64,000 bases of DNA from Candidatus Moraniibacteriota bacterium (GCA_049287005.1 JBAQEZ010000003.1:465084-529083); one strand, 5' to 3'; shown: positions 1,649 through 63,843, numbered from the stretch's first letter. Notes: a model not told the origin generated them from the letters alone. Translations and numbers: made by a program.

Positions 1649-1984
1649 TCAGTTTTGAGTATCGATTACTGCGATGGATCTTTTGATGGCCACAAAACCA
1701 TATCCCCAGAGGAAGGGGAGCCAGAGAGGCATCAGGCCAAAGAGACCGTTTCTATTGAAGGTTTCTACTCCGGTGCTGATGAAAAGGTATTCAGATACTA
1801 TCATGATGCAGAATCCAACAATGAGAACCAAAACATCATTTCGATATCTTTTGAAAACAAGCGAGGCAATAATAATTCCTAAATCAGCGAATGTTAATAG
1901 ATAATCATTTTGAATAATCGGAATAAGACCGATCATGATGAGAACGGGCGTTGCATTGAGGAGTATAGAAGATACTTTTTTCAT
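1649..1984 (-). CDS. Hypothetical small integral membrane protein
   Basis: 111 aa with three or four hydrophobic helices and no recognisable motif. The plus-strand ORFs at 1619..1904 are its antisense. Confidence 0.5.
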   Translation of the reverse strand: MKKVSSILLNATPVLIMIGLIPIIQNDYLLTFADLGIIIASLVFKRYRNDVLVLIVGFCIMIVSEYLFISTGVETFNRNGLFGLMPLWLPFLWGYGFVAIKRSIAVIDTQN

Positions 1985-1990
1985 AATATG

Positions 1991-2062
1991 CTGGGGAGGT
2001 AGGGATCGAACCTACGAATGGAGGCTTCAAAGGCCCCTGCCTTACCACTTGGCTACTCCCCA
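1991..2062 (-). tRNA. tRNA-Gln (anticodon UUG)
   Basis: The reverse complement folds as a cloverleaf: acceptor tggggag/ctcccca, D arm gcc...ggc, anticodon stem ggggc/gcctc with loop cuUUGaa, T arm gtagg-ttcgatc-cctac. The discriminator is G and no CCA is encoded. Confidence 0.8.
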
Positions 2063-2155
2063 TTAAAAAGCTTGTAGCTTCATGAGCTGCCCAGCTTGTT
2101 AACTTTTCTCAATTCAAAAATCTTCAATCCTCAATCATGTATCTTGCATCACTTA

Positions 2156-3874
2156 TCAGGCTTCACTTGCCAACTTGCCGCCGAGCATTTCCAGTGCTTG
2201 GCTGACGAGAGGACTTATGATAGCTTCTCTCGCTTCCTTAGTAGGCTCAGAAGCAGCGTTTTCCAGGACGATCCGGATCCTCATTTTTGACTTCAGAATC
2301 GTATCAAAGGCGGTGGCGAGTGTCAATTGATTGGCTTTTTCGTCGAGGCGTTCTTTGTGGAAGGGATATTTGACGGCGATGGTGATGATCCGGTCGTTGA
2401 CTTCGATTGGGCGGGCAGTGGTGAGGGCCAGGGTGAGAGAAGCGTTCAGGTGTTTAGCCGTATTCAAGATGCTCTGCCAGTGGAGACGGACAGTTTCGAG
2501 ATCGATAACAGCCACGCCCTCTTCATTGGCCGCGGGAGCTTTTGCTTCTTGTGAAATCTGTTGGCTATTATCTGTTAGTTGTTTATTGTTTATTGTTGTT
2601 GCTGTTTTTGTAGAGTCTTTTTTTGGTGTTTCTCTTTCCGTTGCAAGGGGTGTCGGAGATGGTGCGGAAGTGATGGATTCGCTCGGGAGAGTTGGGGGAG
2701 CGGCTGGCGCGGATGATATCCGCGGTGGTTGCGCTGGCGCTGTCGGCGGAATATTGGCGTTCTCTGGCGAGAGGATTTTCACGATGGCGATCTGTAGGGG
2801 GAGTTCCGGGATAACGGAAACCTTGCTGGCTGTCTGAGCTACCTGGAAGTACTCGAGCATTCTGACCGTATCGGTCGGAGAAAATATTTTTGCCAGTCCA
2901 ACGAGGGCGTTCTTCTGTTCGGGCGTGAGCGAATCCAGTTCTCCCGGACCGTTTATGGGATCGGCGGAGACGAGTAGGAGATCACGCAAGTAATGGAGCA
3001 GTGTGCCGGAAAAGATCGACAGATCCGCTCCGTCTCGGGAAAGCGAGCTTACGAAATGGAGGCTCGGGTACAGCTCATGATTTCCGATGAGCCGGAGGAG
3101 GGCGACGATATTTTCCTTTTTGGTCGTACCGAGTACCTCGATGACTTTGTCTTCGGTGATCGGGGACGCTTCGAGGGAAATGATCTGCATCAAAAGCGAT
3201 TCGGCATCGCGCATTCCGCCTTCGGCTGTCAGCGCGATCATTTCCAGGGCGCCGGCATCGATTTTCAATTTTTCCTGCTTGGCTATTTTTTCCAGTTTCC
3301 CCACGATGCTTTGCACCGGAAAACGGGAAAGGTCAAAACGCTGGCAACGCGAGATGATCGTATCGGGCACTTTGTGGAGCGCCGTGGTCGCCAGGATGAA
3401 GATGACGTGGGCCGGCGGTTCCTCAAGCGTTTTGAGGAGCGCGTTGAAAGCGCCGGTGGAGAGCATATGCACTTCATCGATGATATACACCTTGTGGGAG
3501 CCGAGCGTCGGGGGCAGATTGACCGTCTCGCGCAGTTCGCGGATGTTGTCGACGCCGGTATGCGAAGCGGCATCGATTTCTATCACGTCGAAACTGCGAC
3601 CTTCGGCCATGAGGAGACAATGCCGGCATTTGTTACAGGGTTCCGCGCCATTCCTGTCGGAGCAATTGACGGCTTTGGCAAAAAGACGGGCCAGAGTGGT
3701 CTTGCCGGTACCGCGCGGGCCGGTCAGGAGATAGGCTTGGCCGACGCGTCCCAGTCTCAGGGCGTTGGTGAGGGTGGTGACGACATGTTTTTGACCGACG
3801 ACATCTGCAAAGGTTTGTGGGCGGTATTTTCTGTAGAGCGTAGTTGACATAGTCCGGAAAATTTTCATTATCAA
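2156..3874 (-). CDS. dnaX: DNA polymerase III subunit gamma/tau
   Basis: N-terminal YRPQTFADVVGQ, Walker A GPRGTGKTT, a zinc module CxxC..C..C, and a long Pro/Ala/Ser-rich tau-like linker. The true start may be the internal Met of MSTTLYRKYRP at 3850. Confidence 0.9.
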   Translation of the reverse strand: MIMKIFRTMSTTLYRKYRPQTFADVVGQKHVVTTLTNALRLGRVGQAYLLTGPRGTGKTTLARLFAKAVNCSDRNGAEPCNKCRHCLLMAEGRSFDVIEIDAASHTGVDNIRELRETVNLPPTLGSHKVYIIDEVHMLSTGAFNALLKTLEEPPAHVIFILATTALHKVPDTIISRCQRFDLSRFPVQSIVGKLEKIAKQEKLKIDAGALEMIALTAEGGMRDAESLLMQIISLEASPITEDKVIEVLGTTKKENIVALLRLIGNHELYPSLHFVSSLSRDGADLSIFSGTLLHYLRDLLLVSADPINGPGELDSLTPEQKNALVGLAKIFSPTDTVRMLEYFQVAQTASKVSVIPELPLQIAIVKILSPENANIPPTAPAQPPRISSAPAAPPTLPSESITSAPSPTPLATERETPKKDSTKTATTINNKQLTDNSQQISQEAKAPAANEEGVAVIDLETVRLHWQSILNTAKHLNASLTLALTTARPIEVNDRIITIAVKYPFHKERLDEKANQLTLATAFDTILKSKMRIRIVLENAASEPTKEAREAIISPLVSQALEMLGGKLASEA

Positions 3875-3973
3875 TTTCTACTTTCTCAAGAAAAACCTGA
3901 TTTCTCAATTTCGGGATGAGATATGAGGTATCAGAGAGTGGCATTCGTTGTCAGTATACCTCTTCTGGGGCAA

Positions 3974-4004
3974 TAAAAAAAGCTCCCTGTATACGGGGCT
4001 TTTT
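3974..4004 (-). terminator. Rho-independent terminator hairpin for the GtrA-like gene
   Basis: Stem gctcc/ggggc with loop ctgtatac at 3982..3999. An A-run on the plus strand upstream gives a U-run on the minus transcript, and a T-run on the plus side follows. Confidence 0.5.
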
Positions 4005-4019
4005 GCGTCAGCAGACAGA

Positions 4020-4514
4020 CTATTGCTTGGCAGTATTGAAGACGAAAAATTTGTAACCGATGAAGTTCCAAATGAGGGAAAATCCGGTCGCCATCAGTTT
4101 GGCGATGTTGGCCCACAGGACAGCGCTCAAACCGAAGAGCGCCGGGATATAGGTAGTGATGCCGGTCAGGATAAGTCCGTTGATGACAAGGCCGATGATG
4201 CTGATGATGAAAAACTCTGAAAATTTTATCGGTTCTTGTTCTGTTTTTGTCTTGTCTTGGAATGTCCAGCGTTTGTTCATGAAATAGCTGTTGATGACAG
4301 CGACAGAAAAAGAAATGCTGTTGAGCACGAATAATTCCAAGCTGTTCGTGATGCCCGTGACATAGATCAGGGAATTTAAGATAGCGAAATCAATGCCCGT
4401 ATTGATACCGCCAACGATGATGAATTTGGAAAACTGTCTGACGAGTTTCATGAGAGGACTTCGATTCACAGCTGCTGGCGCAAAAGGAACGCCCTGCATC
4501 GCTTCAGTATTCAT
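4020..4514 (-). CDS. GtrA-family membrane protein (polysaccharide synthesis/flippase-associated)
   Basis: 164 aa with four TM helices. The N-terminal FSKFIIVGGINTGIDFAILNSL is typical of the GtrA family. Confidence 0.7.
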   Translation of the reverse strand: MNTEAMQGVPFAPAAVNRSPLMKLVRQFSKFIIVGGINTGIDFAILNSLIYVTGITNSLELFVLNSISFSVAVINSYFMNKRWTFQDKTKTEQEPIKFSEFFIISIIGLVINGLILTGITTYIPALFGLSAVLWANIAKLMATGFSLIWNFIGYKFFVFNTAKQ

Positions 4515-4544
4515 GATGATGTTGCGTGAAGTGTAAATTATGCT

Positions 4545-5339
4545 TTATTGTGCTTGTTTGATTTCTTTTTCGATTTCTTCCATATCGCGCACCCAGGAAT
4601 CGAGCATATGCGTATCGCCACGCACGGCCGAATCACCGGGCTTGATGGGTGAAGTGTCGGCAGGCTGTGCGTCTTTGAGATCCTTTTTCCAATGATTGAT
4701 ACTCTCGTTTTCTTCGGTGGCTTTGGAAAGGGCTGCTTGCCAATCCTCGCGGGCTCCCTTTTGAATGACATTTTCGATAGCGGCCCACGTAGCTCCGGGA
4801 TCATGGGGGGTGACAATAGCCACTTCGTCTCCGGGTGCCGTTTTGAAATAGGTGATCGAAGCCAAAAGGACCCGGTACGGTTTGCCGTCAGCCAGGACAT
4901 AGTAGTTGCCGCTTTCGTCTTGCGTGACGACCGCGATGGCATGGCGTCGATCGATCGGACCGATTTGTTTGTACAAAAAAGCCCCATTGTCAGTGATGGT
5001 GAGTTTCAGCATATCGCCTTCGACGAGCTTGGATTTCGAAGCGTAGTTGGCCGGTACCGGATATTGTTTGCCATCTGTGCCGAGCATAATCTGTCCATCG
5101 AATGTTCCTTCGATGACCGTACCTTCTACCGTATCCAAATCCACCTTGCGCGGACGGCCGGACTTCTTTTTTCCTTCGAGCTGAAGCAGCATCGCCTTTG
5201 CGCCCTGGATAGTCTTCTCGGCGCTCATTACCATATCGCGCAGAGCTTGGATTTTCATCGCCTGCTCTTCGGCATTATGCAGCTCCGGATCAGTGTGGGT
5301 ATTATTATTTGGTGTCATAATTTTGTTTTTTCTAGACAT
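4545..5339 (-). CDS. Hypothetical protein, soluble
   Basis: 264 aa with no catalytic motif recognised. It has a KKKSGRPRK AT-hook-like basic patch and acidic termini, and good coding periodicity. Confidence 0.5.
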   Translation of the reverse strand: MSRKNKIMTPNNNTHTDPELHNAEEQAMKIQALRDMVMSAEKTIQGAKAMLLQLEGKKKSGRPRKVDLDTVEGTVIEGTFDGQIMLGTDGKQYPVPANYASKSKLVEGDMLKLTITDNGAFLYKQIGPIDRRHAIAVVTQDESGNYYVLADGKPYRVLLASITYFKTAPGDEVAIVTPHDPGATWAAIENVIQKGAREDWQAALSKATEENESINHWKKDLKDAQPADTSPIKPGDSAVRGDTHMLDSWVRDMEEIEKEIKQAQ

Positions 5340-5639
5340 TCCAACAGAGCAAAAATCCCCATCGAAACCCCGATCTTTTTTTGTTTGTCTTACGTTGTTA
5401 TTATAAATGTTTTTTGCAATACGCGCAAATATATGTATATCCTGCTTTCTTTACAATGTTATTACGACTTCGGTTACATCTGAGACGCGCAGAGGCAACA
5501 TGATCGCGGTGATAGCAGCCAGGCTTTGGCCTCGTGACCGATTGAAGAATGCCTTGCTTCTTGCAAAAGATACCCGGGGTGGCCGCCTATCGATTTACGA
5601 GGGGAAAAGAGGCACCATGCTGCCGGGCGGGTCATGGGG

Positions 5640-55661: not shown

Positions 55662-55726
55662 TGGCGTTAGATGGTGGACAGGATGCCGGTTTTGTGCTAG
55701 AATAAGTCGTTTCCCGTTCTTTTCCA

Positions 55727-56123
55727 GAACAGATCGGATTATCGCGCGGCTGCTTCTTCGGAAGCGGAGCGAGGAAAGTCCGGACACCCGCCAACTTTGT
55801 CTGCTCTGGGCATCGTATGCCGCTTGAGGAGGCATAGTGAGCAGAATAGACAAAGTTGGCAGCAGGTAGCGGGTAACCCCCGTCTAGAGCGATCTACGAG
55901 GTGCGAACAGAGATGTCTTGTTCCGAAAGGAATGAGAGGACCCGCAAGGGTTCAGTCCTTACGGCAACGTAGGGGGTGCAACAGCTAAATCCTTACTTGG
56001 GTGCAAGGCCGTGCCTCGAGCAATCGGGGAGTGCCGCAAAGATCTTGCCGGCAACGGCAAGGCAAGAGAAATGATAATCCTCTCTCGCGAGAGAGAGACA
56101 GGATCCGGCTTATAGATCTGTTC
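55727..56123 (+). ncRNA. rnpB: RNase P RNA, bacterial type A
   Basis: P4 5' strand GAGGAAAGTCCGGACACC, 3' region ACAGGATCCGGCTTATAGATCTGTTC, and P1 pairing gaacagatc (55727..55735) with gatctgttc (56115..56123). About 400 nt, with no ORF. Confidence 0.8.
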
Positions 56124-56175
56124 AGGAAAAGAATGAGAAGCATTTGAAAAGCTAAAAGCTAACGCAGCTGTTCCC

Positions 56176-57603
56176 ATGAAACGTTCCGAAATATTTTTCA
56201 GCGCCATTCAAGTCCCGGTTGATTTCATGATGATTCTTTTGGCCGCCGCAACGGCCTATTTTCTGCGTGGGTTGCCGCTGTTCGAAGGTTATGTGTCCCG
56301 CGTCTTCAATCTGACTTTCCGGGGCTATCTGGAATTCGCTTTGACAGTCGCCCCGTTTTTTCTCATCATCCTGGCCATCGAGGGACTATACAGCATGCGT
56401 TCTACGCGGCGTTTTTGGCAAGAAGCCTACGGCGTAATGAAGGCTATCACTTTCGGATTGATTGTTTTGATCATTGCTGTTTTTCTGAATCGGGAATGGT
56501 TTTCTTCGCGCTTTGTTATCATTATCGGCTGGCTCTTGGCGGTCTTCTATGTGGTGGTGGCCCGCTATGTCATCCAGCGTATCCAGAAGTGGCTCTTGGT
56601 GAACCGAGGGACGGGCATCCACCGCGTGCTCCTCATCGGATTCAATGACAAGATGAGAAAAATGCGCTCTCTTCTGATCAAGAACAAGGAGCTCGGTTAC
56701 CGTGTCGTGGATCAGATCGCTGATGCCAGCGTCTCGCACATCAAGGACATCCGAGAGAGTAAAGGCATCGATGAGATCATTATCGGCGATCCGTCGCTGA
56801 CCGATGACGAGCAGGCCAAGCTGTTCGACTATTGCCAGATCAACAATATCCTCTATCGTTTTTTCCCTACTTCGCTGCAGACGACGCATTTTTCGATGCA
56901 GATTTGGAACGGCGAACCGATCATCGAATTCCAGCACACACCGCTTGATGGCTGGGGGAGAGTGCTCAAGAGAGCGTATGATATCGTCGCCGGCGTTGTT
57001 CTGACCGTGCTCTTTTCGCCGCTGATGATCGTGATCGCCCTGCTCATCAAGCTCGAGGATCCGGATGGGCCGATCATCTACAAGAACGAACGCATCGGTG
57101 AGAACGGCAAGAAGTTCTTCGTCTACAAGTTCCGCTATATGCTGTGGAAATATTGCATTACCAAGGAAAACCCGGAATTGAAAGAGGCCGTGGCATTCGA
57201 GGAAACGCTCATCGAAGAGCGCAATGCCCGTAAAGGAGGAGTCCTGTACAAGATCAAAAATGACCCGCGCAAGATGAAAATAGGGTCGTTCATCGAACGG
57301 TATTCGCTCGACGAGCTACCGCAATTCTTCAACGTCCTCGAGGGCAGCATGAGCCTTGTCGGTCCGCGTCCGCATCAGGAACGTGAAGTGGATCGCTATG
57401 CGGAATACCACCGCCGCCTGCTGACGATCAGACCGGGCGTGACCGGTATGGCGCAGATTTCCGGACGTTCCGATCTCGCTTTCGAAGACGAATATCATCT
57501 GGATGTTTTCTACATCGAGAATTGGTCGCTGTGGCTGGATATGGTCATCTGCCTCAAGACTGCCGGCGTCCTCCTCCATCGCCGCAAACACAACAGAAAA
57601 TAA
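56176..57603 (+). CDS. Undecaprenyl-phosphate sugar phosphotransferase (WbaP/WcaJ-type bacterial sugar transferase)
   Basis: N-terminal TM helices and the C-terminal catalytic domain motifs DELPQFFNVLEGSMSLVGPRP and RPGVTGMAQI. Confidence 0.85.
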   Translation: MKRSEIFFSAIQVPVDFMMILLAAATAYFLRGLPLFEGYVSRVFNLTFRGYLEFALTVAPFFLIILAIEGLYSMRSTRRFWQEAYGVMKAITFGLIVLIIAVFLNREWFSSRFVIIIGWLLAVFYVVVARYVIQRIQKWLLVNRGTGIHRVLLIGFNDKMRKMRSLLIKNKELGYRVVDQIADASVSHIKDIRESKGIDEIIIGDPSLTDDEQAKLFDYCQINNILYRFFPTSLQTTHFSMQIWNGEPIIEFQHTPLDGWGRVLKRAYDIVAGVVLTVLFSPLMIVIALLIKLEDPDGPIIYKNERIGENGKKFFVYKFRYMLWKYCITKENPELKEAVAFEETLIEERNARKGGVLYKIKNDPRKMKIGSFIERYSLDELPQFFNVLEGSMSLVGPRPHQEREVDRYAEYHRRLLTIRPGVTGMAQISGRSDLAFEDEYHLDVFYIENWSLWLDMVICLKTAGVLLHRRKHNRK

Positions 57604-57645
57604 ATACAATCATAATTTCACGGTCGTGAAATTATGATTGTATTT
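57602..57645 (+). terminator. Perfect 20-bp inverted repeat with a 4-nt loop (terminator-like hairpin) after the sugar transferase
   Basis: aaatacaatcataatttcac-ggtc-gtgaaattatgattgtattt. It overlaps the stop codon at 57601..57603 and has only a short T-run. Confidence 0.45.
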
Positions 57646-57808
57646 TACGGAAGGCTCTCTGTGATTTTCGCAGGGAGTTTTTTATCTTGACATGAAATCT
57701 GTTTTTTCTCTTCCATTTTGATATACTGGATGTAATAGAAAGATATTCAAAATAACGCAACAAAACGTTGTGAGTGGTTTTGTAAAATAATTTTTTAAGC
57801 AAAAAAGT

Positions 57809-58093
57809 ATGTGTTCATTTCTTAAGTGTCCAAGTGATATCAGCATAATTGTTTGGTTTTTAATTATATCGGCAATTTTTTCGTTTATAATTTTAGCAAA
57901 GTATAAAAACAGACATCTTTCTTCTCTGGTTTTTTCTATTCTTGTCAACGGAATATTTTTTTTGACAGCTATTTCTGGCAGTTTGATTTTTCGAATTTAT
58001 GGGGTTGAATGGCTCCAATATTTCTCCATCTTCATTTGGCCAGTTATAAATATTATCCTCATCATTCTTTATGTCAGGAAAAAAAATCGGTAG
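57809..58093 (+). CDS. Possible small membrane protein in an AT-rich island
   Basis: 94 aa with three hydrophobic helices. Local AT content is high, and it overlaps the next gene start by 23 nt. Confidence 0.35.
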   Translation: MCSFLKCPSDISIIVWFLIISAIFSFIILAKYKNRHLSSLVFSILVNGIFFLTAISGSLIFRIYGVEWLQYFSIFIWPVINIILIILYVRKKNR

Positions 58094-61000
58094 GTACGTT
58101 CTTGTATCCATACTTTCTTTTTTCATAATATTTTCCCCGGTCAATCTTTCAGTCCTCCGCAACACTTCTTCGGCACAGACCGTTCCCGACGAAACGATAT
58201 CCGATTCTGTGGTTTGGTCTGAAAATAGGGTAGTGACAGGAACCATAACCGTTCAAGTCGGAGCGACACTGACGATTGCCAAAGGTGTCACGATAGAGTT
58301 CGATGGACAGGCATGGATGGATGTCAACGGCAGACTTTCGATAGAAGGGGCTCCTGAGCAGCCGGTCGTATTGAAGAAAAAAGATGCTGATGATGGGGAT
58401 TTCTTTACGATCGCAGCTGTCTCATCCGGAGTCATATCAGCGAGAAATGTCGATGTATCCGGTGGAGGCAGCGCTTCCGAGATTTTTATGGTGGAAGGAA
58501 ATCAGCGCGATTCCCTCTTTCAATACGCGAATGCTTTTTGGATGTATCAGGGTGCGTTTGGCGCGCAAGGCGGAGGAACGCTCGATATTGAAGGGGCAAA
58601 CTTCCACGGTAATCCGCTTGCGGTATATACCGATTCGTCTTCCTATTTTCAGGTGAAAGTGTGGCGATCGAAATTTTCAGGCAATACTTTCGATTTTGTC
58701 AATACAGATAATTCTGTGTCAAACAGCTCTGATATCCGGTATAATTGGTGGGGCAGCGCGGATGGCCCGGAGCACTGTACCAATCCGGACGAATGCGAAC
58801 CTTGGCATACGTATAAGAAAGTTCTCGGTAATGTGAATGTTGCCGATTGGGCGAAAGAAGAAAATTTCAAAGACCCGGTCGTGGTCATACCGGGAATTAT
58901 GGGTTCATGGAAGATGACGCAGAAAAGCGAGTTGAAACTGGACCCTGTTTTTGGTACCTATGATGGACTTTTGGAAACACTCGATGAGAATGGCTATACG
59001 GCAGGAAAAGACCTTTTTCCGTTTCCATACGAGTGGCATTACAGCAACGTTGAATCGGCCAAGCTTCTGAAAACGAAGATCAATGAGATAAAAGCGGCTA
59101 CGAAATGGCCGAGAGTGGATATCGTCGCTCATTCGATGGGCGGACTGGTAGCGCGCGAGTATATTGGAACTTTGGATGGCGGGGGCAATGTTGATCAGCT
59201 CATTACGCTGGGAACGCCGCATGAGGGTTCACCGAATAGTTATTTGATGTGGGAGGGTGGTAAATTTTCGTCCCCATCAAGATTTTCTATATTTGATTTT
59301 TTTGCTAATGGAATTTTCCAGCAAGAAGCCGAGGAGAATGGATATGAAACAGTATTCGATTATATCAGGAAAGCCCCGATAGTTTCTGTACGCGAGCTCT
59401 TGCCGACATATTCCTATCTTCGCGACAAAGAATCAAATGCGTTGCGGACATACCCGAATCTGTATCCTATCAATACGTTTCTTCAGAATCTCAAAACTAC
59501 GACAAATATGAACCGACTTGCGCCGGTCATCTTTACCAATATCGTCGGAAAAACAAGCAATGATGAGACAGTAGGAAAAATTCGTGTCGATGGTGCATCG
59601 ATAGAATTACTGAGCGATCCGGAAAAGATAGTGTTGTGGGGGCATGGAAAACCTGATGGGTACGATAGTGTGATTGGTGATAGAGGGTTGGAGCTCGATT
59701 CTGGCGATGGCACGGTACCGATTGATTCTGCAAAGGGAATTGTTTCTGATGAAACGATAGAATTGGCGAGTAGCCATTCCAATCTTCCTTCTGATGCGGC
59801 AAAAACGGTGTTCAAAACACTGACCGGGTCAGATGCACTATCTGGCGTTTCGTTGAAATCTCCCACTTCTCTTTTGCTTTTTAATGTCTTCTCTCCCATC
59901 GATATACAGATCGTTGCTCCTTCCGGGAAGAAGGTGGGGAAGAATTTCGAGACTGGTGGAGTCTATGACGAGATTCCTCTGGCTTACTATACCGGTTATG
60001 ATACAAAGAATGAATTCGTGACGATACCGAATCCGGAAGAGGGAGAATATAGGATTCTTACGCAAGGAACCGGTGATGGCCCATATCGCATAGAAGCGGC
60101 AAAAATAACTGAGACAGGAGCTTCTGGCGGGGAGGCGAAAGAATCAGTCGTTTCTTTTGTCGGCACGGCTGTTTTGGATATGAGAGAGGAGAAGAAAATC
60201 GAGCTTCTGAGCGATGATACGGTCGTGTCTGAGGGCCAGGACGCTATTCCTCCGACTACTACCACTGTCTCAACCGCTGGCACCGCTGGGACTAATGGCT
60301 GGTACATAGGTGACGTGACGTTGACGCTTGCCGCTCAGGATAATGAGAATGGCAGCGGTGTTGAAAAGACGGAGTATTCTCTCGATAATGGTACGACGTG
60401 GAATGTGTATACTGATCCGGTGGTCATTTCTCAAGAGGGAACAACTACTTTGCAATACTTCTCCACAGATAAGCAGGGGAATAAGGAGGAAATAAAGACG
60501 GAAACCATCAAGATAGACAAAACTGCTCCCGAGGCCAAGATAGCTTTCAGTCCGACGACTAAAAAGCTCGATATCGTGGGTACGGACAATCTCTCGCAGA
60601 ATGTCTCTGTCGTGATAGTGGAGAAGGCTGAAATGAACGTATCGAACAAAAAAGTGAAAAAAATCAGGCCTTGGTTTGTAGAGTGGTTCTGGAAAAACAG
60701 GAGAACTCTTCCGGATATGCTGGTAACGCTGACCGATGAAGCCGGCCATACGACCAGCATCGCTTTTGAGAAAACAAAAGATCGGAATGGGTACCTCTTT
60801 ATCCGAGTGAAGTCTATCGCGTATGATGGCAGCGAAATACTCCTCTCCAACGCGGTTGCACAGTACAAATGGCAGATGGATTGGAAGAAACAGTATCGAT
60901 TGTTCGCATCGTATCTGAGAACTGCCTCAACGGATATCGAGTCCCACTATATCCCGAAAAGGAACGAAACCTGGATCATGGAAAGACCGAGAGACCTCGC

Positions 61001-61112
61001 CGATGATACTCATGACGACGATAGCGAGCGGCGGCCTATTCGAAAGAGACTACCAGGCATGGTTATCTCGTATCTCCAAACAGAAAAAGGCAGCGTAGGA
61101 ATGAGTTATTAG
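58071..61112 (+). CDS. Large secreted multidomain protein: signal peptide, beta-helix-like repeats, alpha/beta-hydrolase lipase domain, Ig-like domains
   Basis: Signal peptide MSGKKIGRYVLVSILSFFIIFSPV. The lipase-like nucleophile elbow IVAHSMGGLVAREY is followed by LGTPHEGS. The C-terminal half is Thr-rich, Ig-like domains (TAPEAKIAFSPT). Confidence 0.7.
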   Translation: MSGKKIGRYVLVSILSFFIIFSPVNLSVLRNTSSAQTVPDETISDSVVWSENRVVTGTITVQVGATLTIAKGVTIEFDGQAWMDVNGRLSIEGAPEQPVVLKKKDADDGDFFTIAAVSSGVISARNVDVSGGGSASEIFMVEGNQRDSLFQYANAFWMYQGAFGAQGGGTLDIEGANFHGNPLAVYTDSSSYFQVKVWRSKFSGNTFDFVNTDNSVSNSSDIRYNWWGSADGPEHCTNPDECEPWHTYKKVLGNVNVADWAKEENFKDPVVVIPGIMGSWKMTQKSELKLDPVFGTYDGLLETLDENGYTAGKDLFPFPYEWHYSNVESAKLLKTKINEIKAATKWPRVDIVAHSMGGLVAREYIGTLDGGGNVDQLITLGTPHEGSPNSYLMWEGGKFSSPSRFSIFDFFANGIFQQEAEENGYETVFDYIRKAPIVSVRELLPTYSYLRDKESNALRTYPNLYPINTFLQNLKTTTNMNRLAPVIFTNIVGKTSNDETVGKIRVDGASIELLSDPEKIVLWGHGKPDGYDSVIGDRGLELDSGDGTVPIDSAKGIVSDETIELASSHSNLPSDAAKTVFKTLTGSDALSGVSLKSPTSLLLFNVFSPIDIQIVAPSGKKVGKNFETGGVYDEIPLAYYTGYDTKNEFVTIPNPEEGEYRILTQGTGDGPYRIEAAKITETGASGGEAKESVVSFVGTAVLDMREEKKIELLSDDTVVSEGQDAIPPTTTTVSTAGTAGTNGWYIGDVTLTLAAQDNENGSGVEKTEYSLDNGTTWNVYTDPVVISQEGTTTLQYFSTDKQGNKEEIKTETIKIDKTAPEAKIAFSPTTKKLDIVGTDNLSQNVSVVIVEKAEMNVSNKKVKKIRPWFVEWFWKNRRTLPDMLVTLTDEAGHTTSIAFEKTKDRNGYLFIRVKSIAYDGSEILLSNAVAQYKWQMDWKKQYRLFASYLRTASTDIESHYIPKRNETWIMERPRDLADDTHDDDSERRPIRKRLPGMVISYLQTEKGSVGMSY

Positions 61113-61162
61113 AACAGTGGTATAATAGAAGCATAGCCTTCTAACTTTTAACTTATAATTCT

Positions 61163-61507
61163 ATGCTTCTTATCAAATGGCTGGTCAGCGCCCTGGCGTT
61201 TCTGGCACTGCCGTACATCATAGCGGGGATTAGTGTGCAAAGCTTTGGAACGGCGTTGGTGTTGGCGCTTCTGTGGGGCGTGGTAAACGTCACTATCAAG
61301 CCGATTTTGCTGGTTCTGACTCTGCCTATCAATCTTCTGACGTTCGGTATCTTCACGTTCATCATCAACGGCTTTCTGCTCTGGATTCTCGGGGGGATGA
61401 TCAAGGGCTTCGAGGTGCATGGCTTCTGGGTGGCGGTGCTCGGCGCGCTCGTCCTCTCGGCTATCGGTACCCTCACGCATTTCGTGTTCCACAGAGCTGA
61501 GATGTAA
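61163..61507 (+). CDS. YvlD/phage-holin-family-4-like membrane protein
   Basis: 114 aa with four TM helices. The pattern LPYIIAG...WGVVNVTIKPILLVLTLPINLLTFGIF..INGFLLWIL matches Phage_holin_4_2/YvlD. Confidence 0.55.
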   Translation: MLLIKWLVSALAFLALPYIIAGISVQSFGTALVLALLWGVVNVTIKPILLVLTLPINLLTFGIFTFIINGFLLWILGGMIKGFEVHGFWVAVLGALVLSAIGTLTHFVFHRAEM

Positions 61508-61582
61508 TAGGTATATTGTTTCGATTGAACTAAAAAATCCCGACCATCATCAGGCCGGGATTTTACTTTCTCGAAGAATCTT

Positions 61583-62296
61583 TCAATCACGCTTTTCTTC
61601 GCTTGGGAGGGTGATGAGAGCGATTATGAGGGTAAGAGACAGGCCCACGAAGAGGACGGCGATAGAGGCGATATAGAAGTGCTTCAGGAACCAGGGTTTG
61701 TACTGTGAGATCCTCTGATCGAGCTCCCGGAGGTCTTGCCACCAGTGCTTGTTATTGTAGACCAATCTCATAGCCAGGGATTGGTTTTTCGTCACTTCTC
61801 CAGTGGTGGCGAGAGCGAGAGACATATCTTCATTTTTGTTTTCCGTGGTGAAAAAACGCAAGTACCTCGTACTGGTATTGGCCTTCTCGTATGAAACGAT
61901 GGCACAATATTTCTTGCCGTCGGAATCCTGTACGGGCGGGAAGGTGACGACGTAGAGATTGTCTGCGTTGAGGAAGGGGACTGCCAAAGTGCCTTGTCTT
62001 TCGGCAGTGGTACACGTTTCATCGGAGAGGGTTACTCGTACGGTATCGTCTTTATTCGGTCCAGGGGTACGGAGCAAGAATTCAATTCTGCTGAGTCCGT
62101 CTCGATTGGCGACGAATGTCTGGTGAAAGGCTTGATCGTGGTATATTTTCAAAGGATCTCCTTTCTCCAAAACAGTCTGGGAGTCGGGAAAAGATATGAT
62201 GCTGAAAAACTTGAAGAAGATCAGGAAAACGAGTATTCCCAAGGCCGTCAGCAGTATTTTTTTGGAATTGAATTTCATGCTTTTAACTTTCTTCAT
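61583..62296 (-). CDS. Hypothetical bitopic protein (N- and C-terminal TM helices, extracytoplasmic middle)
   Basis: 237 aa with no motif. Confidence 0.45.
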   Translation of the reverse strand: MKKVKSMKFNSKKILLTALGILVFLIFFKFFSIISFPDSQTVLEKGDPLKIYHDQAFHQTFVANRDGLSRIEFLLRTPGPNKDDTVRVTLSDETCTTAERQGTLAVPFLNADNLYVVTFPPVQDSDGKKYCAIVSYEKANTSTRYLRFFTTENKNEDMSLALATTGEVTKNQSLAMRLVYNNKHWWQDLRELDQRISQYKPWFLKHFYIASIAVLFVGLSLTLIIALITLPSEEKRD

Positions 62297-62361: not shown

Positions 62362-63843
62362 TTACATATAGAACCGGAGGATAATAGCATCAAAAATAAG
62401 ATACGTCGTCAGCGAAAATATGAGTATGAGAGCCGCGAGGAGTACGGTGTTGAAATACTTCTCCTTTTTGCAATAGGCAAGAACCGCTCCGAGACCGGTA
62501 CCGACGAGCAGGATATGCGCGGAGAGGTTGGGGAGGAAATACCGCCCCGGAGTGCCGAGGCTCATGGTCATGCTCCCGAGTCGGCTAAAGGCAGACCAGT
62601 CAGCGGCGCGGACTCCCAATTGCAGGGCAACGATCATACCGATGAGGAAGAGGATGTATTTCTTGGCGGGAAGGAAAGCGGGAGCTGATTTTTTGGAAAA
62701 AATGAGCATGCCGAGACCGATGAGCGCTATGGTTTCAATGACGAAGATGAAATTCATGCTATTGCTCAGGGTCCAGCTATTGATCCAGCTGAGCGTACCC
62801 CAGTAGGTGGAGGAGGGCAAGACAAATTTTTTAAAAGTAATCGTTCTGGAGATATAGTCACCGAGAGTATGCATTGTTTTGCTGAGAGAGAGGCTGCTTC
62901 CGAGGAAGTGACTGAACAGATAATAAGCGACGAAGAGAAATACAAAAAGGCATATGCTATAGACGCTATAGCGGAAGTGCTTATCCTGCAATCGCACTTT
63001 TCCGTAGAGCAAATAGGTGATGAGCGCGATGAATGCCACTATCAGGATATATCCTGTCCCTTTGGTCTGGGCTGCCACCAGTATCGATCCGAGCAGGAGC
63101 GTCAGGTTTTTCCAGTCCAGCCCTTTTTTGAGCGCGAGTACTCCGGCATACGTGAAGAGAAAAAAAATGGGGATGAGGAGGACATCGTAATTGATATTGG
63201 TGAAATAGAGCGAGAATTTCGGCTGAAAAGAAAGGAGAGAAGTGAGAATGAGGCTTGTTTTAGCGGAAAATCCGATGGTTCTCGCGGTGAGATAACAGAA
63301 AAAGACGGCCATTGTGCCGAGCAGGACTGAGAAACTCCTGATGAGATAGAACCGTACGAGAATGCTCTGATCTACGAAAAACTTTTCCAGCTGCGAGGCA
63401 ACTATATGATAGAGAGAAATTCCTGCGGTATCCGGTTCGGTATAGTAATTATAAGGTTTCCAGATTTTCGAATTTATCGCCGATTCGTTTTCTCCCTCGA
63501 AAGAGTGTGAAAATATGATGGTGTTAAAAATATCGCTTCGTAAAATATCGGTATTGACGACTGCAGCCGTTTTTTGGATTTCTTCGGAATAATTATACGT
63601 GTCGAAATCATCTTTGTCTCGCAAGGCGTCATCATTACGTCTTTGGTTTTTCTCAACATCTGGTACGACATTGTTTGGTTCGGCGAAGAATTGAATCGTG
63701 TTATAGTGCCGGGTCTCGTCTTGCCCGACAAAAAGTGGTTGGATGGCCGCCAAAAAAACGCCTTTGAGGAAAAAGACGATAAGAATCAAGGCTAAAATGA
63801 ATTTCGGATCTTTTAAAATGGTCAAAAAACGATTGTTTTCCAT
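62362..63843 (-). CDS. Polytopic membrane protein, probably a second GT-C fold glycosyltransferase
   Basis: 493 aa with more than ten TM helices. The first extracytoplasmic loop reads QPLFVGQDETRHYNTIQFF, a DE motif like ArnT and PMT. Confidence 0.5.
   Translation of the reverse strand: MENNRFLTILKDPKFILALILIVFFLKGVFLAAIQPLFVGQDETRHYNTIQFFAEPNNVVPDVEKNQRRNDDALRDKDDFDTYNYSEEIQKTAAVVNTDILRSDIFNTIIFSHSFEGENESAINSKIWKPYNYYTEPDTAGISLYHIVASQLEKFFVDQSILVRFYLIRSFSVLLGTMAVFFCYLTARTIGFSAKTSLILTSLLSFQPKFSLYFTNINYDVLLIPIFFLFTYAGVLALKKGLDWKNLTLLLGSILVAAQTKGTGYILIVAFIALITYLLYGKVRLQDKHFRYSVYSICLFVFLFVAYYLFSHFLGSSLSLSKTMHTLGDYISRTITFKKFVLPSSTYWGTLSWINSWTLSNSMNFIFVIETIALIGLGMLIFSKKSAPAFLPAKKYILFLIGMIVALQLGVRAADWSAFSRLGSMTMSLGTPGRYFLPNLSAHILLVGTGLGAVLAYCKKEKYFNTVLLAALILIFSLTTYLIFDAIILRFYM

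Follow-up and report, generated by a model that had tools for sequence, protein, structure and literature searches.

A predicted exported lipase and a conserved small membrane protein encoded as a pair in Candidatus Moraniibacteriota and other Patescibacteria

Introduction

Lipolytic enzymes of bacteria can be encoded beside a gene for a dedicated second protein. In the lipase-specific foldase systems of Pseudomonas, Burkholderia and Acinetobacter (LipA-Lif/LipB; PDB 2es4, 9g8u), the gene of an exported lipase stands beside that of a membrane-anchored helper, and in Pseudomonas aeruginosa the capped GxSxG serine hydrolase Tle4, a phospholipase effector of the type VI secretion system (T6SS), is encoded beside its immunity protein Tli4 (PDB 4r1d). 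Here we analysed 64,000 nucleotides (nt) from the metagenome-assembled genome of a Candidatus Moraniibacteriota bacterium (GCA_049287005.1, JBAQEZ010000003.1:465084-529083). We call this whole stretch the window, and all coordinates of its features are counted in it. It encodes a lipase-like protein of 1013 amino acids (aa), followed by a gene of a family that bears a holin name. A first-pass annotation had described both genes; our comparison with related loci points to a third one, a small open reading frame (ORF) overlapping the lipase start, as the conserved partner of the lipase.

The source is a bacterium of the Candidate Phyla Radiation (CPR), in agreement with the small-genome organism that the first-pass annotation had supposed. 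CPR bacteria cannot synthesise their membrane lipids, and lysolipids have been attributed to or found enriched in CPR (PMC7242380). A secreted phospholipase was proposed for Vampirococcus (PMC8080830), while the mechanisms of lipid uptake and breakdown are unidentified in the group (PMC11665869). The earlier suggestion of host-membrane attack or lipid scavenging by the lipase is a reasonable inference that these papers already contain. The gene pair described here is a concrete two-gene candidate for how lipid-dependent CPR bacteria may attack or harvest the membranes of other cells.

A small membrane-protein gene overlaps the lipase start

The lipase gene and the downstream gene lie where the first-pass annotation had placed them (58071..61112 and 61163..61507, separated by 50 nt). 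The AT-rich island that it had seen before the lipase also exists, with a GC content of about 0.30-0.33 across ~57600-58100, and 0.30 at 57604-58093, versus 0.50 for the whole window. This stretch is not empty, however: most of it is occupied by a conserved 94-aa ORF at 57809..58093 that had been missed. The features of the lipase cassette are as follows.

57809..58093, plus strand: small membrane-protein ORF, 94 aa (homologs at equivalent position, codon-position pattern)
58071..61112, plus strand: lipase gene, 1013 aa (ORF call; Pfam LCAT/PGAP1/Lipase_2)
58071..58175, plus strand: putative signal peptide or signal anchor, aa 1-35, with MSGKKIGRY, a hydrophobic core and a possible cut between SSA and Q (hydropathy/charge; AlphaFold2, AF2)
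58188..58820, plus strand: right-handed parallel beta-helix domain, aa ~40-250 (all-beta solenoid in the AF2 model)
58872..59840, plus strand: alpha/beta-hydrolase lipase domain, aa 268-590 (Pfam, AF2)
59868..60230, plus strand: beta-sandwich directly after the hydrolase, aa 600-720, with FSPIDIQ motif (AF2, predicted local distance difference test (pLDDT) about 90)
60303..60515, plus strand: OmpL47-type/CHB_HEX_C-like Ig-like beta domain, aa 745-815 (NCBIfam NF047446)
60531..61109, plus strand: C-terminal beta-rich module(s), aa 821-1013, without family match (AF2)

The 94-aa product would consist of about three hydrophobic segments and a basic C-terminal tail, with no soluble domain. Cysteines C2 and C7 are invariant, and a loop with the sequence SGSLIFRIYxVEWLQYF and an FxWP..N motif are conserved. 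The ORF overlaps the lipase start by 23 nt (58071-58093), so that the lipase ATG falls inside the Tyr-Val codons of the YVRKK tail. Homologs with 35-67% identity overlap the lipase start by 11-25 nt in eight further independent loci (L001, L002, L003, L012, L084/85, L087, L088 and L093). Loci L090-92 carry two tandem copies of two subtypes upstream of the lipase, the proximal of which overlaps its start by 4 nt, and in L004 and L014 the homolog is found directly downstream of the lipase instead. We considered whether the ORF might be a frameshifted lipase N-terminus and rejected this, since the overlap recurs in eight loci and the gene stands downstream in L004 and L014.

The overlap itself is dual-coding. 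The same A-rich nucleotides at 58071-58093 encode the basic, predicted cytoplasmic tail of the small protein, YVRKKNR with its stop codon, and in another frame the basic n-region MSGKKIGRY of the lipase signal. This junction is shared by L001, L002, L084, L087 and L093, and the overlap length is 2 mod 3 in eight of nine loci. A further observation concerns the A/T-rich sequence that leads into the small ORF (aaaataattttttaa[g/c]..aaaaaagtATG), which is near-identical in the window (57778-57808) and L090 (4972-5000) though the small proteins are only ~65% identical.

Substitutions between the small ORFs of the window and L001 numbered 24/13/56 at codon positions 1/2/3, and 841/605/1058 when summed across pairs of homologs. 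This pattern marks the ORF as translated and subject to purifying selection. Two subtypes could be distinguished. Type A starts with MCSFLxCP and has the invariant Cys2 and Cys7 and the SGSLIFRIYxVEWLQYF loop, type B starts with MIDSIGLGGFLA, and L090 has both in tandem. Between the window and L084, the lipases are 71% identical and the small partners 42%; between L002 and L084, the corresponding values are 51% and 68%. This mismatch suggests that the partner subtype has been reassorted relative to the lipase.

The small-ORF family matched nothing in Pfam, NCBIfam or PHROG and comprises only 69 clusters at 50% identity among 1.84 billion representatives. An exact search of a 15-billion protein collection did not return the window's copy, which indicates that the gene was left uncalled in the source genome. 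In all genomes examined the ORF is AT-rich (GC 0.22-0.36), irrespective of local GC. Judged by its conservation and position, this small membrane-protein gene, which the source annotation lacks, is the lipase's conserved partner; that gene callers skipped it in the source genome is an annotation trap that we correct here.

The pairing recurs across Patescibacteria

Using tblastn, we found the hydrolase together with the first beta-sandwich (aa 268-700) in remote loci across Patescibacteria. This core occurs in Moran-, Giovannoni-, Jorgensen-, Gottesman-, Falkow- and Collierbacteria and in Paceibacterota, and also in some Chloroflexota. We then scored as a partner any ORF of 50-170 aa with at least three hydrophobic segments that lies on the same strand at a distance of at most 60 nt, and used 75 other genes of at least 300 aa from the same loci as controls. 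A small ORF with multiple transmembrane (TM) segments was present beside the lipase in 19 of the 25 Patescibacteria loci (versus 4 of the 75 controls; odds ratio 56, Fisher P = 9e-12), mostly directly downstream of it and either overlapping or 1-10 nt away. Among 76 flanking proteins, we detected no other conserved neighbour of the lipase.

The small partners of these loci form at least three or four sequence clusters, none of which is matched by Pfam. No homology was detectable between clusters I and II (hhalign probability 0.2%).

Tight linkage of a cognate second gene, as in Tle-Tli pairs, is thus found here with overlapping reading frames. Nevertheless, both described types of pair differ from this one. 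Tle4 belongs to a T6SS, whereas the window lipase lacks such a context and has a Sec-type signal instead; it adds a beta-helix and Ig-like modules to the capped hydrolase, and its polytopic membrane partner of ~94 aa is dissimilar to Tli4. The lipases of the foldase systems are fold relatives of the window lipase. Lif, however, carries a large periplasmic helical domain of some 300 aa on a single TM anchor, whereas the partner described here would be almost wholly membrane-embedded: the small ORF shows neither an N-terminal anchor with a large helical domain nor the Lipase_chap profile, and it is without Pfam or NCBIfam match. We found no earlier description of a consistent lipase/small-membrane-protein pairing in the literature searched, and to judge from these comparisons it differs from both Lif and Tle-Tli.

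A single-protein scan of metagenome contigs returned only six loci. Locus L094 encodes a 1138-aa protein (1727-5143) with the beta-helix N-terminus of the window protein and almost the same C-terminal modules. Between these shared outer modules lies a different LCAT-type variant of the hydrolase core with an IAHSNGG elbow, and a 138-aa multi-TM ORF (5172-5588) follows the hydrolase gene after 28 nt. By sequence comparison, the relation between L094 and the window is one of domain shuffling.

In two Chloroflexales loci, lipase homologs are followed by ORFs of 75-87 aa that are 58% identical to each other (L024 6095-6322 and L025 7766-8029) and have two hydrophobic segments each. The arrangement of a lipase and a small membrane protein may therefore extend beyond Patescibacteria.

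Domains, catalytic residues and export of the lipase

A protein identical to the lipase is on record as a hypothetical protein (WAV46_03680, MFZ2187694.1) from a 767-kb contig of a Candidatus Moraniibacteriota metagenome-assembled genome. The Pfam profiles LCAT (4e-13; 49.8 bits, cut-off 21), PGAP1 (7e-9; 36.2 bits, cut-off 24.3) and Lipase_2 (2.5e-6; 27.6 bits, cut-off 20.3) all matched above their curated cut-offs. These matches bear out the lipase-type hydrolase domain that the first-pass annotation had read from AHSMGG (aa 353-358) and LGTPHEGS (aa 380-387). Conservation was counted in a set of 47 homologous sequences, all of which are matched by LCAT and PGAP1. Ser355 (AHSMGG, nt 59127-59144), Asp546 (GDGTV, nt 59703-59717) and His569 (SSHSNL, nt 59769-59786) are invariant in this set, as are the PG..GS strand motif (PGIMGS in the window, aa 274-279) and the glycines of the nucleophile elbow. 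The three residues correspond to a predicted Ser-Asp-His catalytic triad with the serine in a GxSxG elbow. In an AF2 model built on the 47 homologs (mean pLDDT 85.1), a helical cap is inserted in the hydrolase at aa ~388-485 (helices 388-481); the domain has the alpha/beta-hydrolase fold with a cap or lid.

At the N-terminus, three basic residues precede a hydrophobic core of 13 residues; the model has a helix at aa 6-21 and a low-confidence linker (aa 22-37) behind it. Of the 47 homologs, 45 have a comparable segment, and the lipase has no further TM segment. Thus, export of the lipase is likely, and the signal-like N-terminus proposed earlier was upheld. The same holds for the N-terminal beta-helix at the level of the fold. 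The corresponding family PF13229 matched 8 of the 47 homologs (best 4.6e-10) and gave no Pfam match at E <= 1 in the window protein: the fold is supported, and PF13229/NosD-like membership by sequence is weak.

The C-terminal half had been described as Thr-rich Ig-like modules. Ig-like and beta-sandwich modules are indeed present, whereas the Thr content is raised only moderately (10.8% versus 6.7% in the N-terminal half), and the description as Thr-rich fits mainly one PPTTTT linker, PPTTTTVSTAGTAGT (aa 727-741). This linker precedes the OmpL47-type domain at aa 745-815, which NF047446 matched at 1.6e-20 (73.3 bits, cut-off 40) and CHB_HEX_C weakly. Pfam gave no match for aa 821-1013. When the C-terminal 418 residues were modelled alone (pLDDT 88.7), they matched nothing but generic structures of tandem Ig/Fn3-like adhesins, S-layers and tail fibres, at E >= 1e-5.

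A profile search against PDB sequences retrieved Bacillus LipA-type lipases (1e-11 to 1e-9), lysosomal phospholipase A2 (LPLA2, 1e-6) and Tle4 (1e-5). The best fold matches were Tle4, LPLA2 and BlEst2; the top Foldseek match, 6wpx (3.5e-12), extended over 557 alignment columns and so exceeds the hydrolase domain alone. All top fold matches and every family match above cut-off are lipid-acting enzymes. The large protein joins a known superfamily as a new member, and its architecture is unusual.

Its relatives illustrate this. With LCAT and LPLA2 (PF02450; PDB 4x90, 4xx1, 5txf) the protein and its homologs share, besides the LCAT match in 47 of 47 sequences, the PG-x-x-G-S/N strand motif, the Ser-Asp-His triad and a helical cap within the hydrolase. 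However, the sequence alignment is limited to profile positions 67-174 of 392 at 15-22% identity, and the window protein is bacterial, multi-domain and about three times larger; any acyltransferase activity of it is putative. The BlEst2/EstA3-type lipases of Firmicutes (PDB 6wpx; PMC10816834) have a hydrolase followed by a beta-sandwich like the Patescibacteria core at aa 268-700. The beta-sandwich of EstA3/BlEst2 is treated in PMC10816834, and the PDB depositors of BlEst2 call its C-terminal domains inhibitory pro-domains. Bacillus family I.4 LipA (1i6w) shares the AHSMGG elbow. In contrast to the window protein, neither BlEst2/EstA3 nor LipA has a beta-helix, a large helical cap, further Ig-like modules or a known small membrane partner.

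The PF04020 gene and the junction occupied by the cassette

The cassette of the window lies between a Bac_transf gene and the gene with the holin name. The features flanking it are listed here.

56176..57603, plus strand: Bac_transf-type initiating sugar-phosphate transferase, 475 aa (Pfam PF02397, 8.5e-59)
57602..57645, no strand: perfect 44-nt palindrome, 21 + 2 + 21, 100% complementary, overlapping the Bac_transf stop codon (sequence search)
57649..57684, plus strand: intrinsic-terminator-like hairpin with U-tract, GGCUCUCUG...CAGGGAGUUUUUU (folding)
57687..57727, plus strand: promoter-like block upstream of the small ORF, TTGACA at 57687-57692 and extended -10 TGATATACT at 57719-57727 (consensus match only)
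61117..61125, plus strand: extended -10 TGGTATAAT, 37 nt before the PF04020 start codon (consensus match only)
61163..61507, plus strand: YvlD-like PF04020 ('Phage_holin_4_2') four-TM membrane protein, 114 aa (Pfam 2.6e-30)
61536..61566, no strand: bidirectional terminator-like hairpin, AAAAAATCCCGACC...GGCCGGGATTTT, between the convergent PF04020 and 237-aa genes (sequence/folding)

The 114-aa protein, which the first-pass annotation had called YvlD/phage-holin-4-like, is a full-length member of PF04020 (105.6 bits, cut-off 28.8; 2.6e-30) with four hydrophobic segments, as in YvlD/PF04020 proteins elsewhere. In Bacillus and Listeria, YvlD is part of a sigma-W/Psp-like envelope-stress operon (PMC3498285, PMC12791056), the PspC-type yvlABCD operon (PMC12791056), whereas the conserved neighbour here is Bac_transf. 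Despite its membership in a family named after phage holins, the protein was found in no phage or lysis-cassette context and had no PHROG match at E <= 0.01. In every locus examined, its neighbours were Bac_transf and polysaccharide genes, with no adjacent muralytic gene. The label "phage holin family protein" is thus without support from genomic context, a second annotation trap corrected here.

Although the PF04020 gene begins 50 nt after the lipase end, several observations separate the two genes. On long contigs of three other Patescibacteria (L095, L096 and L097), pheS, pheT, Bac_transf and PF04020 stand in this order ahead of genes for polysaccharide export and synthesis; PF04020 begins 50-105 nt behind Bac_transf, and the lipase is absent. 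The cassette stands between Bac_transf and PF04020 in the window, L093, L094, L084/85 and L001, sometimes with further insertions (Fic, RhuM or a 23S-rRNA-IVP gene), while in L090-92 it follows PF04020. PF04020 is not near the cassette in L002, L003, L012 and L088, nor near the lipase in any of the remoter loci, so that adjacency wherever either gene occurs was not observed. PF04020 homologs are 66-86% identical, nearly all >70%, across at least 120 clusters, whereas the best lipase homolog is only 70% identical; the PF04020 gene evolves far slower. A TGnTATAMT element is found at the equivalent place before PF04020 in six of nine loci (the window, L090, L093, L094, L095 and L097), irrespective of the upstream gene, and TGGTATAAT is likely the PF04020 gene's own promoter.

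Because of the lipase-free Bac_transf-PF04020 contexts, its own -10 element and the missing PHROG match, the proximity of PF04020 to the lipase looks coincidental: the gene appears to be a positional neighbour of the cassette in ordinary synteny. We therefore rejected the holin as lipase partner, on synteny, promoter-like element, slower evolution and PHROG result. Coincidence was one of two options offered by the first-pass annotation, and it is the one that stood; the other, a release mechanism, did not, given that the gene sits directly after Bac_transf in the lipase-free L095-97. Conservation of the gene in unrelated contexts, which we found, is what the annotation had itself named in advance as telling against a link.

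Synteny makes Bac_transf the ancestral neighbour on the upstream side of PF04020, and the lipase cassette a variable insertion at their junction. Accessory genes at the junction or at cassette flanks include Fic/RhuM (L001 584-1564), Fic (L084 8092-9123), a PemK toxin (L002 8955-9356), RhuM (L003 4627-5577) and a 23S-rRNA-IVP four-helix gene (L001 5132-5347). On this gene content, the junction behaves as an insertion hot spot.

The first-pass annotation had raised recent horizontal acquisition, to be judged by GC comparison with flanking genes. At 0.48, the GC content at third codon positions (GC3) of the lipase is the lowest among window ORFs of at least 300 aa (mean 0.58, s.d. 0.05), and that of the small ORF is 0.32. 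However, lipase GC3 is below that of the flanking Bac_transf and PF04020 in every related locus. As this contrast recurs in relatives whose lipases are 35-70% identical, it points to an old intrinsic property, and recent transfer of the cassette is unsupported. Among IMG/VR viral contigs, only four weak relatives were found.

Possible function of the pair and alternative explanations

We consider it slightly more probable than an even chance that the cassette encodes an exported lipolytic enzyme and a cognate small membrane partner acting in self-protection or docking; both the substrate and the partner's role we infer. The lipase would be exported by Sec and either kept at the cell surface or released. 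Its beta-helix and Ig-like modules could bind surface glycans or proteins on another cell, and the capped triad would then remove or transfer ester-linked acyl chains of membrane glycerolipids. Such acyl removal would damage the target membrane and release fatty acids or lysolipids usable by a lipid-auxotrophic CPR cell. The small protein, presumably made from the same mRNA as the lipase, would be inserted in the membrane of the producer, its conserved loop exposed on the outside. There it may either shield this membrane, in an immunity-like manner, or dock the enzyme, two roles that the data do not separate.

Several points weigh against this proposal. Lipase activity and substrate are predictions from sequence and fold, and the Pfam and PDB sequence matches span just the half of the fold that bears the nucleophile, with 13-28% identity to solved structures. 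The fold is shared by polyhydroxyalkanoate (PHA) depolymerases, thioesterases and further esterases (PhaZ7 and PPT matches). Cleavage, localisation and small-protein topology derive from simple hydropathy and charge rules. Since no homology was detected between the small partners of different Patescibacteria clades, one common function for all partners is an assumption. The host and the lipid metabolism of the organism are not readable from a 64-kb window. Finally, the cassette is often found within or beside cell-surface polysaccharide genes, which an own-envelope role fits equally.

Such a role would mean acyl transfer or removal on the producer's own lipid-linked or secreted glycopolymer, with the small protein as membrane-embedded partner or anchor. 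Among the related enzymes, LCAT and LPLA2 act as transacylases and PGAP1 as a deacylase. Both in the window and in its closest relatives, a cell-surface polysaccharide locus surrounds the cassette, with Bac_transf, a Wzx-type Polysacc_synt gene, GT2, epimerases and a PMT-like GT-C; some neighbours in remoter loci are GT4, Wzy_C and MurJ genes, and a beta-helix is typical of proteins that bind or process glycans. The locus context thus somewhat favours this alternative. Nonetheless, the cassette also occurs apart from polysaccharide genes (L003, L088), glycan genes make up only about 10% of neighbours in the wider loci, and the junction gathers unrelated accessory genes (Fic, RhuM, PemK, IVP) as well. 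Moreover, cassette-free relatives keep the same polysaccharide locus, which therefore does not need the lipase, and we regard an own-envelope enzyme as rather unlikely. Less probable again is that an antibacterial phospholipase and its immunity factor serve competition, not nutrition. A tightly linked second gene on either side of the lipase gene, tandem duplication and subtype reassortment of the partner, and its fast divergence into several families would all suit a toxin-immunity pair, but the lipase has a Sec-type signal only and the +/-6 kb flanks showed no secretion-system genes. The known Tli proteins are either soluble in the periplasm or lipoproteins, not small polytopic proteins, and orphan immunity arrays were not seen. 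This alternative overlaps heavily with the exported enzyme and protective or docking partner that we prefer, and the main difference is one of purpose.

It is quite improbable that the lipase is a general scavenging esterase for non-membrane substrates such as PHA, plant or microbial polyesters or acylated polysaccharides. NCBIfam gave a weak match to PhaZ7, an extracellular PHA depolymerase (0.0017, far below cut-off), and PhaZ7, feruloyl esterase and PETase-like structures are among the fold matches, yet the top-ranking folds and the families above cut-off all act on lipids, the helical cap resembles that of LPLA2/LCAT, and a conserved membrane-embedded partner would be left unexplained. We give hardly any credence to a single release unit in which the PF04020 protein permeabilises the membrane to free the lipase. 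In its favour, the two genes share a strand and are separated by 50 nt that contain no canonical terminator, and PF04020 lies within about 1.2 kb of the cassette in five distinct arrangements. Against this stand its position directly after Bac_transf in lipase-free genomes, its place upstream of the cassette in L090-92, its absence nearby in L002, L003, L012 and L088, its own extended -10, slower evolution, missing PHROG match and lack of an endolysin neighbour. In addition, the lipase already has a Sec-type signal, and Firmicute YvlD belongs to a sigma-W/Psp-like envelope-stress operon (PMC3498285, PMC12791056).

A bolder extension of the preferred explanation is possible, though we hold it as doubtful. 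An exported LCAT/PGAP1-type lipase with a cognate small polytopic membrane protein might be a widespread, undescribed Patescibacteria module and the missing lipid-acquisition device, which would strip acyl chains or lysolipids from host membranes; the partner would protect the producer's scavenged membrane or receive the product, and its diversification into families that look unrelated would track enzyme or host. Should the module prove to be such a device of CPR bacteria, its interest would be higher.

Transcription signals and flanking genes

Promoters and -10 elements were identified by consensus matching, and the transcription signals are read from the sequence. The perfect 44-nt palindrome noted in the first-pass annotation is present at 57602-57645. 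It occurs once in the window, where shuffled sequences lead one to expect none, and would form a long AU-rich hairpin (dG -28.9, z -8.0); together with the adjacent terminator-like hairpin the values are dG -43.1 and z -9.6. The palindrome is absent at the equivalent junction in five related loci and thus specific to the source genome. On this absence and its single copy in the window, we rejected it as a conserved regulatory or recombination site; it may be an RNA-stability hairpin, a protein-binding site or an insertion scar. An imperfect 21 + 2 + 21 hairpin at 61127-61170 was likewise rejected as a second cassette boundary; it is unlike the first palindrome, has a z of only -2.1, and is better read as a PF04020 leader with a ttctaac motif common to other loci.

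The terminator-like hairpin at 57649..57684 likely ends the Bac_transf transcript. A GGGAGTTTTTT block downstream of Bac_transf is also found in L090 and L094. The spacing between TTGACA and the -10 element after it is 29 nt, over canonical length, so that only the extended -10 TGATATACT is credible. L094 and L090 have an equivalent TTGAC...TGnTATAAT block after the Bac_transf terminator, and L093 has a TGGTATAA element there, in each case regardless of the next gene. Neither the small ORF nor the lipase nor the PF04020 gene is preceded by a Shine-Dalgarno motif. At the other end, the hairpin at 61536..61566 probably closes the plus-strand transcription unit or units.

An Rfam scan of 52-64 kb gave RNase P RNA as sole match, and no tRNA genes were found beside it. 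The RNase P RNA (RF00010) is full-length at 55726-56128 on the plus strand, within the 515-nt gap between pheT and Bac_transf, and its score of 92.8 bits (E 1.2e-27) is slightly under the Rfam gathering score of 100. The gap is of similar size (~470-510 nt) in L090, L095 and L096.

Beyond the PF04020 gene, the minus strand encodes a 237-aa protein (61583-62296) without family match, which has hydrophobic N- and C-terminal ends and an invariant SQYKP.FLK motif. It adjoins a PMT/DUF2142-like GT-C glycosyltransferase of ~490 aa (62362-63843, minus strand), and the pairing is kept in L001, L002, L012 and L084/85. By their sequences, these two genes look like an uncharacterised two-gene glycosylation unit.

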